In this document: piece after piece, positions 1 through 16,642 of the stretch
Layout of the letters: each line of letters starts with the position of its first letter
Numbering within the stretch: position 1 is the stretch's first letter
Assembly: GCA_041615815.1 (NCBI GenBank)
Contig: JBFJCP010000051.1
Span: 1-16,642, forward strand
Direction: 5' to 3'
Length of the DNA: 16,642 nucleotides
From: Gemmatimonadales bacterium
GTDB lineage: Bacteria > Gemmatimonadota > Gemmatimonadetes > Gemmatimonadales > GWC2-71-9
The notes under the pieces: model-generated
Told to the model about the DNA's origin: nothing
Databases searched by the model: none
What the model saw: only the letters and a program-made list of their open reading frames with translations
Made by a program: the position numbers and the translations under genes

Positions 1-122
1 ACAACACGAAGATGACGATTGAGTTGATCACGCCGATCGCGATGGAGGAGGGGCTGCGCTTCGCGATTCGGGAAGGCGGCCGCACCGTCGGCGCCGGCGT
101 GGTCACCAAAATACTGGCCTAG
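1..122 (+). CDS. tuf: Elongation factor Tu, copy 1 (3' end only, truncated by window start)
   Basis: Frame starting at nt 3 reads [42 protein letters not shown](120-122), the conserved EF-Tu C-terminus; position before rpmG-secE is the usual tufB-like locus. Not in the ORF track. Confidence 0.97.
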
Positions 123-146
123 CACCACCGAACCGCCGGGTAGGTT

Positions 147-3437: not shown

Positions 3438-7934
<4,497 letters not shown>

Positions 7935-13468: not shown

Positions 13469-15559
<2,091 letters not shown>

Positions 15560-15600
15560 AGCGTCCCGACCATTGAGCTTTACGACACGAGGACACGACC

Positions 15601-16642
15601 ATGGCGAAGGCGAAGTTTGAGCGGACGAAGCCGCATGTGAATGTGGGGACGATTGGGCATGTGGATCATGGGAAGACGACGTTGACGGCGGCGATCACGT
15701 TGGTGCAGTCGAAGAAGGGGTTGGCGGATTTTGTGGCGTTTGACTCGATTGACAAGGCGCCGGAGGAGAAGGAGCGGGGGATTACGATTGCGACGGCGCA
15801 TGTGGAGTATCAGTCGGAGGCGCGGCACTATGCGCACGTGGATTGTCCGGGGCATGCGGATTATGTGAAGAACATGATTACGGGGGCGGCGCAGATGGAT
15901 GGGGCGATTTTGGTGGTGAGTGCGGCGGACGGGCCGATGCCGCAGACGCGGGAGCATATTTTGTTGGCGCGGCAGGTGAATGTGCCGTACGTGGTGGTGT
16001 TTTTGAACAAGGTGGACATGGTGGATGATCCGGAGTTGTTGGAGTTGGTGGAGTTGGAGGTGCGGGAGTTGTTGAGCAGTTATGAGTTTCCGGGGGATGA
16101 GATTCCGGTGATCAAGGGGTCGGCGTTGCAGGCGTTGGAGCATCCGGAGGATGGGGAGAAGACGGCGTGCATTCAGGAGTTGATGGAGGCGTTGGACAGC
16201 TACATTCCGGTGCCGGAGCGGGAGGTGGACAAGCCGTTTTTGATGCCGGTGGAGGATGTGTTTTCGATTACGGGTCGCGGGACGGTGGCGACGGGGCGGA
16301 TTGAGCGGGGGCGGGTGAAGGTGCAGGAGGAGGTGGAGTTGGTGGGGTTTGGGGCGGACAAGAAGACGGTGGTGACGGGGGTGGAGATGTTTCGGAAGTT
16401 GTTGGACGAGGGGGTGGCGGGGGACAACGTGGGGTTGTTGTTGCGGGGGGTGGCGAAGGAGGAGATTGAGCGGGGGATGGTGTTGGCGCAGCCGAAGTCG
16501 GTGACGCCGCACACGGGGTTTGAGGGGGAGGTGTACGTGTTGACGAAGGAGGAGGGGGGCCGGCACACGCCGTTTTTCAAGGGGTATCGGCCGCAGTTTT
16601 ACTTTCGGACGACGGATGTGACGGGGTCGGTGGAGTTGCCGG
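15601..16642 (+). CDS. tuf: Elongation factor Tu, copy 2 (truncated by window end)
   Basis: [33 protein letters not shown]...RGITI...[21 protein letters not shown]...NKVD...[34 protein letters not shown] about 7 nt upstream; open to the window end and so absent from the ORF track. Confidence 0.99.

Follow-up and report, generated by a model that had tools for sequence, protein, structure and literature searches.

The tuf gene at the end of the window and its second copy

The window analysed here is a stretch of 16,642 nt from a Gemmatimonadales bacterium (GenBank assembly GCA_041615815.1, contig JBFJCP010000051.1), and it forms contig C51 of a 4.19-Mb assembly of 73 contigs that is 95.7% complete and is referred to as G000. 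It ends inside tuf, the gene for EF-Tu, which no other protein of the cell exceeds in abundance: codons 1–347 of the tufA coding sequence, annotated as tuf by their match to Escherichia coli, form a plateau of G-ending codons on the plus strand at 15601..16642, where the contig end cuts them, and effectively represent both copies of the gene collapsed into one. Our recount of the third positions over the 347 codons at 15601–16641 reproduced exactly the numbers of an earlier reading made from the sequence alone (G 264, T 55, C 28, and A 0), and the regularities described there hold as well: 161 of the 164 four-fold sites are G, the exceptions on the plus strand being GGT at 16273 and CGC at 16276 (together 16273..16278) and GGC at 16558 (16558..16560); all 27 leucines are TTG; and pyrimidine-ending sites, Ile included, favour T about 2:1 (T 54 vs. 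C 26). At two-fold purine sites, every codon ends in G (67/67). The longest run of G is six, and GGG at 16558 would give a run of seven; the GGC found there may reflect avoidance of long G runs. A search for G-quadruplex motifs in G000 found none, and they were dismissed as an explanation.

The neighbouring genes, whose names except that of tuf we assume from their protein sequences (rpmG, secE, nusG, and rpsJ among them), were said to be free of the bias, and so they are, with four-fold G between 0.40 and 0.52. What is presumably fusA (13469..15559, plus strand), our single-copy and co-transcribed control, has G174, C119, T40, and A26 at four-fold sites, and its last 30 codons have G10/C7; the ribosomal-protein genes of the genome range from 0.35 to 0.53. 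In the proposed genome-wide check of codon usage, covering 3,330 open reading frames (ORFs) from a caller made for this analysis, tuf was the top outlier, with four-fold G of 0.98 against a mean of 0.39 ± 0.06 and a binomial log10 p of −55; the next-ranked ORF reached only 0.65.

The skew starts sharply, as had been noted, but its start marks the onset of identity with a second copy at 15598, 3 nt before the ATG, and not the ATG itself. This 5′ edge of the repeat, 127 nt at 15598..15724 on the plus strand, is identical to C20:127-1, where the second copy begins behind a tRNA cluster (Thr-Tyr-Gly-Thr, read by eye in G000 and called by ARAGORN in relatives), the usual context of tufB. The other end of the second copy opens the window: positions 1–141 are identical to C45:1-141 and hold the last 40 tuf codons. 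Of these, the codons at 3..53 (plus strand) are the last skewed ones of tufB, with all four-fold and two-fold purine sites ending in G; the 3′ tail at 54..122 (plus strand), identical in tufA (C45:54-122), has been homogenised without skew; and the noncoding end of the block lies at 123..141 (plus strand), the copies first differing at 142, from where tufB leads into rpmG-secE-nusG and tufA, on C45, into rpsJ. The skew thus ends before the stop codon, the tuf 3′ end at 3–122 being unskewed from about 54–72 on; it stops at approximately 53–71, some 70–88 nt before identity ends at 141. ARAGORN found no tRNA in the window, the 300–370 region between rpmG and secE included, where a tRNA-Trp is usual in many bacteria. 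The gene order is tRNAs-tufB-rpmG...rpoBC-rpsLG-fusA-tufA-rpsJ; the two copies have the same orientation and are separated by about 17 kb, an arrangement shared by intact relatives. About ten tuf codons are absent from the assembly, and of the second copy the G000 contigs contain only 127 nt at the 5′ end and 141 nt at the 3′ end, full 1.19-kb pairs being present in 47 relatives; a second, identical tuf copy has been collapsed in the assembly.

The protein tree recommended as a check for transfer places EF-Tu of G000 with those of the same-family genomes G185/G015/G160, G139, G153, and G084 (support 96), whose tuf genes are also skewed, and G185 and G139 belong to its group in the EF-G tree as well (support 93). 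The closest named EF-Tu proteins are 83–84% identical and mostly from Gemmatimonadota. By these trees, transfer of tuf is not indicated, and the skewed gene appears native. Among sequencing runs, five of marine DNA, from two studies, contain 78–84% of the words sampled; as one of them may be the source of the assembly, they are not counted as support. Separately, two EF-Tu length classes (397–398 and 400–403 codons) are interleaved across families of the order when the two trees are compared, a pattern suggestive of transfer or of ancient sorting of paralogues; in G137, the class differs from that of its genus.

The skew follows near-identical repeats

Skew is given as (G − C)/(G + C) at four-fold sites. 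The copy-state panel was drawn from 31 relatives and 301 genomes of the phylum; tuf was fetched for 121, one of them without sequence, and sorted into 47 near-identical pairs (0–12 differences), 5 diverged pairs (84–169 differences), and 27 single copies, the last class being limited to assemblies of at most about 20 contigs. Outside the classes, G137, G221, and G265 were handled separately, and 38 genomes with odd pairs or unresolved copy number were excluded; the unpublished genomes G016 and G167 appear in the tables and the EF-Tu tree and in none of the three classes, and no conclusion depends on them. The median skew is 0.81 (range 0.22–0.99) in near-identical pairs, 0.19 (0.05–0.38) in diverged pairs, and −0.06 (−0.27 to 0.23) in single copies: the suggested comparison of two-copy and single-copy lineages thus finds the skew absent from single-copy tuf and largely lost once the copies have diverged. 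Loss of either copy abolishes it, of tufA in G077 and of tufB in G058 and G075; G265, without tufB, keeps a partial skew of 0.41, compared with 0.69–0.75 in its genus. The EF-G tree implies at least 11 changes of copy state, and 5–6 independent pairs agree and none disagrees; as the median p of the sign test is 0.06, this phylogenetic test is only suggestive. Skew in tuf shows no correlation with skew in the neighbouring genes (rho −0.03). T is gained in relatives of lower GC content, G035 and G153 among them, and in the EF-Tu proteins of family f7, Glu/(Asp+Glu) is 0.62 in two-copy genomes vs. 0.53 in the single-copy genus, the difference being small in the other clades.

A test had been suggested of whether other multicopy sequences are outliers in the same direction, and a duplicated domain on contig C9 of G000 is one, with the skew and the gap. 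The second outlier ORF of the genome, C9:2068-3546, is skewed only in a polysaccharide-lyase-like domain (a weak Pfam match) shared by two neighbouring genes (C9:2087-2773, locus L168; C9:1-113 and C17:1-102), the second copy being seen only at its two ends. Within the identity block, the counts are G103/C10, compared with G84/C49 beyond it; the skew begins approximately 15–20 nt inside the 5′ boundary and ends about 64 nt before the 3′ boundary, the same plateau and 3′ gap as in tuf. Homologues in seven other genomes are unskewed (G 0.36–0.59), and other repeats of G000 at 80–91% identity show no overall skew. The same pattern recurs in a DNA methylase and a lipoprotein family described below; the skew is independent of the encoded protein.

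Some further stretches of G000 drew attention. Three tandem kinase genes, 87% identical (C59:1-163, 2096-2906, and 4765-5575), are C-rich at the start and have G18/C2 within a 97% identical block; Ig-like repeats at the end of C46 and the start of C5 become G-rich (31/10, 21/1) as they approach the contig break, which hints at an identical unit that has been collapsed; C35:22600-22760 (minus strand) is a C-only stretch, with C at 34 of 40 four-fold sites, for which no second copy of the gene was found and which may be due to chance; and an integron-integrase-like gene at C65:202-1287 (minus strand), on a 4.2-kb contig, has a mild excess of G and T (G 0.56).

The abrupt end of the skew recurs across genomes. 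Among the 26 pairs with the strongest skew, G amounts to 0.80–0.95 from about codon 6 to codon 378 and then 0.21 in the last 18 codons, the copies being nearly identical up to the stop despite the unskewed tail. The plateau is shifted in every amino-acid family with room for it, and the tail shows either no shift or a slight reversal (Lys G 0.70 vs. 0.96); avoidance of G runs was rejected as the cause of the tail, which is unskewed also in Thr, Val, Ala, Glu, and Lys. Across skewed repeats, the gap between the end of the skew and the 3′ end of identity is approximately 60–75 nt, and with a longer shared downstream flank the tail contains more G (G35/C51 vs. G74/C271). An all-G motif search across phyla matched at least 119 stretches, spanning Acidobacteriota, Nitrospirota, several proteobacterial groups, Chloroflexota, Eisenbacteria, Aminicenantes, Elusimicrobia, Latescibacterota, and others; 80 were fetched, and of the 80 tuf starts scored (79 and that of E. 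coli), 38 were full and 42 incomplete, mostly at contig ends. Pooled, this set, itself selected for G, has G 0.73/C 0.13 in the plateau and G 0.28/C 0.54 in the tail.

The skewed tuf is real, native, widespread, and tied to homogenised repeats: the skew tracks near-identical copies, decays when they diverge or one is lost, and stops 60–75 nt short of one boundary. What had been proposed as a directional force confined to the duplicated gene is in this respect upheld, the single-copy, diverged-pair, and non-housekeeping repeat data restricting it to duplicated sequence and tying it to conversion, and the skew is very probably conversion linked and nonselective.

Strand, mechanism, and competing explanations

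The explanation that we favour, and hold to be moderately probable, is that gene conversion with a preference for G over C on the leading strand keeps overwriting one tuf copy with the other. Both copies lie on that strand in direct orientation, with about 17 kb between them; conversion would keep them identical, and every new silent mutation would be fixed or erased by a conversion event. Since identical copies would pass every mutation through conversion, composition would depend on the bias per event and not on how often such events occur. G would strongly beat C on the leading strand, and T would beat C and G beat A moderately. The heteroduplex may usually consist of the recipient's leading-sense strand, the template of the lagging strand, exposed in gaps at or behind the fork, and the opposite strand of the donor, and MutS/MutL may reject or undo the events with mismatches that it can see. 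Donor G over recipient C would then give C:C, missed by MutS, and convert, and the reverse would give G:G and be caught; if the recipient's lagging-strand template does pair with the donor's other strand, G would for that reason win on the leading strand. According to the accessible parts of the respective papers, in E. coli a C-C mismatch goes unrepaired and a G-G mismatch undergoes repair (PMC5021808, PMC3167615), G-G being reduced approximately 10- to 12-fold (PMC5021808), lagging-strand oligos are favoured up to 30-fold (PMC3167615), and in Salmonella the mismatch type shapes tuf conversion tracts, MutS most likely destroying mismatched events (PMC5485169). The C:C step is a serious candidate for the source of the bias, one that we hold slightly short of probable.

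MutS was found in G000 and MutL in 50 of 50 genomes. Of 50 genomes, NucS (PF01939) turned up in 1, which belongs to the single-copy class, and not in G000, and a model of NucS/EndoMS-directed repair was rejected on these numbers. Duplication of recA was likewise discarded as a cause, the gene being single in 40 of 40 genomes, as was loss of RecBCD/AddAB as a switch: 23 of 40 genomes, many of them strongly skewed, have the nuclease domain. In G000, there was no match to RecC or to the PD-(D/E)XK domain of the AddAB type; RecF is present, on a different contig from dnaA.

The sequence-only reading had described the force as G over C, T over C, and G over A. Compared between pairs and singles at four-fold sites, the odds ratios are 8.8 for G/C, 8.1 for A/C, approximately 5.9–6.0 for T/C, 1.5 for G/T, and 1.1 for G/A, with 3.4 for G/A at two-fold sites; mainly, then, C is lost to G, and a preference for T over A is not consistent (T/A 0.73). 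The gains of T over C and G over A are the directions of deamination, and together with the gain of T in the lower-GC G035 and G153 they speak for conversion-coupled mutagenesis, in which exposed single strands (C-to-T and A-to-G deamination) or error-prone synthesis would mutate the repeats asymmetrically, a cause of the type put forward for GRINS (see below); confinement to repeats and strand polarity are predicted equally by this process. We nevertheless consider it unlikely. The largest shift is a C-to-G transversion, reaching 13.4 in family f7, and a toy stationary model with raised C-to-T lifts T to 0.26–0.44 and leaves G at about 0.43–0.45, whereas a fixation filter in the same crude model, with odds of 11 for C/G and of 4 for T over C and G over A, yields G 0.81, C 0.105, and T 0.07, the observed values being 0.79, 0.10, and 0.07. 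Mutagenesis would also need local rates 10–50 times the background from rare events, while a filter would act on every mutation. A TC-context (APOBEC-like) signature was rejected, the shift being present in all contexts.

Where the asymmetry had been read along the coding strand, the strand that matters looks like the leading one. The repeats of G000 do not discriminate between the two, as all skewed ones are coded on leading-like strands. Scans of near-complete relatives for a periodic G/T pattern were useful in G255, G139, and G170 and gave mostly low-complexity matches, among the matches listed, in other genomes. In G255, where dnaA and a flip of skew mark the origin near 1.36 Mb, contig C1 carries at least eight lipoprotein genes (L384–L389; about 1,540 aa, with CarboxypepD_reg repeats), all lagging coded, with shared fronts and divergent ends; eight copies, 90–94% identical, have C2103/G450 over 600 codons, against G481/C501 in the divergent ends, the first 21–35 codons being neutral. 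The same contig has a pair of DUF1156 DNA methylase genes with one copy per strand (C1:351196-353564 and 1251905-1254273; 97.6% identical), which is antisymmetric, the 5′ part having C90/G24 and the 3′ part G133/C34. A pair in G139, both copies leading coded, is G-rich and fades at the 3′ end, as does tuf. As homogenised copies are not independent, this amounts to one family and two pairs, but with a lagging-coded family that is C-rich and a pair of mixed orientation that is half C and half G, the sign appears to follow replication; we regard it as likely, from these few cases, that both sign and gap do so. They also make it improbable that the process is conversion linked but oriented by transcription, through R-loops or RNA invading the other copy, with G on the coding strand. 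Every skewed repeat of G000 does have G on the coding strand, which is there the leading one as well, and G201 is uniformly G with a possibly lagging copy; the C-rich lagging-coded family and the change of sign along a single reading frame are contrary to it.

Selection on the tuf mRNA for C-poor codons (for weak folding, escape from Rho, or translation speed) draws on the less stable folding of the most skewed tuf genes, with −24 kcal/mol per 100 nt in G000 and −28 to −35 in four other skewed genes, compared with −34 to −38 in five single copies. Single-copy tuf bears the whole load and is yet unskewed in 27 genomes, which already contradicts such selection, and the values of the ribosomal-protein genes, the recurrence of the pattern in lyase-like, methylase, and lipoprotein sequences, and the opposite sign under lagging coding leave it very improbable. 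Neither does the pattern fit translationally selected codon bias, being absent from other highly expressed genes and from single-copy tuf. A foreign origin of tuf, or a chimera made in assembly, for which the disagreement of the EF-Tu and EF-G trees elsewhere in the order might be cited, is extremely unlikely given the groupings above, the exact joining of both ends to two native loci, and the long single-contig relatives that hold both copies intact.

Several observations weigh against biased conversion on the leading strand. No conversion event has been observed. Two near-identical copies are not sufficient for skew: 2 of the 47 pairs, G088 and G171, are at single-copy level (0.22); G012 and G025, kept out of the classes by collapsed or truncated copies, each show two starts of the gene and are unskewed (G 0.53 and 0.45); and E. 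coli tufB has G 0.29, C 0.20, and T 0.42 despite conversion and MutS. An nxrAB pair of Nitrospira, 94–100% identical, is unskewed in one genome; the genes are partly skewed in a further one, where copy number is not established. None of the repair genes tested separates skewed from unskewed genomes, and G000 implies odds near 96, above the 10- to 12-fold laboratory figure. The correlation of tail and flank is weak (Spearman 0.27, p 0.07), and taking the stop codon as the reference point gives a sharper step than taking the end of identity. The case for polarity comes from one family and one pair, both of the same genome, G255, and the neutral start of that family overlaps a signal peptide; G201 is uniformly G though one copy would be lagging if dnaA marks its origin; and a repeat in G170 that we take to be IS21-like passes from G-rich to C-rich, opposite to the order in the mixed pair.

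The repeat in G170 (C1:428773-431066, L397, and two more copies) has a G-rich first ORF and a second that is almost purely C-ending, and in Nitrospira an nxrA-like gene (L341; G327 C2) is G-skewed in its 3′ third (27/2, 20/4), fading at the end.

The widest form of biased conversion on the leading strand would be a hitherto undescribed, replication-oriented drive in many bacteria, in which MutS, blind to C:C, lets recombination in lagging-strand gaps fix G in place of C on the leading strand whenever any copies homogenise, with odds of 10–100, overriding codon selection in the most expressed gene, pushing Asp to Glu in EF-Tu, leaving an origin-distal footprint of 60–75 nt, and acting as the general cause of the skewed repeats known as GRINS, their sign changes included. 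We offer it tentatively and think it rather doubtful.

Relation to known systems and significance

The sequence-only reading knew of no described mechanism for such directionality. Skewed, converted repeats have in fact been described, as GRINS, with the origin of the skew published as unknown; the accessible part of that paper gives no mechanism and does not mention tuf, and its authors propose that skew promotes conversion, arising from tautomer or deamination errors (PMC8256042). Going by the same part, tuf resembles GRINS as a near-identical repeat, probably of more than 500 bp in G000 as in the full pairs of relatives, with intense skew strongest at third positions, abrupt edges, a link to conversion, and both signs possible on one strand, as in the mixed pair of G255. 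Identity is 100% over the assembled parts, with 0–12 differences in the 47 relatives, against a GRINS threshold of >80%, and in 150-nt windows with a step of 30 the mean |GC skew| of tuf is 0.505, above the cut-off of 0.15. The mean |TA skew|, on the other hand, is 0.094, below the same cut-off, though third positions have T55 vs. A0, and the correlation of GC and TA skew is 0.37, compared with 0.70 in GRINS as far as the source gives it; the concentration at third positions is clear in tuf. Moreover, tuf is a core housekeeping gene, the GRINS in that part lying in polyketide synthase or transposase genes, and here conversion appears to produce the skew, replication oriented and with a one-sided gap of 60–75 nt. 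As the TA-skew criterion fails, we do not class tuf as a member; it works like GRINS.

The closer relation is with the concerted evolution of tufA and tufB. The same two loci are involved, the str operon and the tRNA cluster, and, in what is accessible of the literature, identity is likewise bounded by the gene and MutS affects the tracts (PMC5485169, PMC6053082). In G000, one copy follows fusA and the other the tRNA cluster (C51/C45 and C20/C51 junctions), and paralogues are closer to each other than to orthologues, within-genome copies differing by 0–12 and EF-Tu of G000 having at most 90% protein identity to other genomes. The published model, in the parts consulted, treats the process as symmetric: initiation is uniform, tracts extend equally in either direction, and no base is named as preferred. 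In addition, tufB of E. coli is not G-skewed; the accessible text of PMC6053082 lacks the word "skew," and its list of phyla lacks Gemmatimonadota. The tuf of this genome is a case of tuf concerted evolution, and its skew does not follow from the symmetric model of that process.

GC-biased gene conversion shares with our explanation the biased resolution of mismatches but treats G and C alike. Ordinary leading-strand GC skew has the same sign, at about +0.05/−0.07 in G000 vs. 0.98 in tuf. In recombineering of E. coli, G would gain on the leading strand through the lagging-strand preference combined with the failure of MutS to act on C:C (PMC3167615, PMC5021808, from their accessible parts); that is a laboratory process with phage annealases and supplied oligos, to which natural chromosomal conversion is likened by analogy. 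Our literature search, with most subscription journals outside its reach, found no paper on a G-skewed tuf or on strand polarity of GRINS, and further supplementary tables on GRINS could list tuf.

Overall, with its repeated losses of one copy, tuf provides a natural experiment on skew of the GRINS type and new handles on the mechanism of that skew; gene conversion in bacteria has been modelled as symmetric. If our explanation is true, skew at silent sites would be a sign of long-running conversion that can be read from sequence only, even where an assembly has collapsed the copies. The skew is also a caution that, among lineages of many phyla with two copies, tuf can mislead as a standard for optimal codons and perhaps in tree building.
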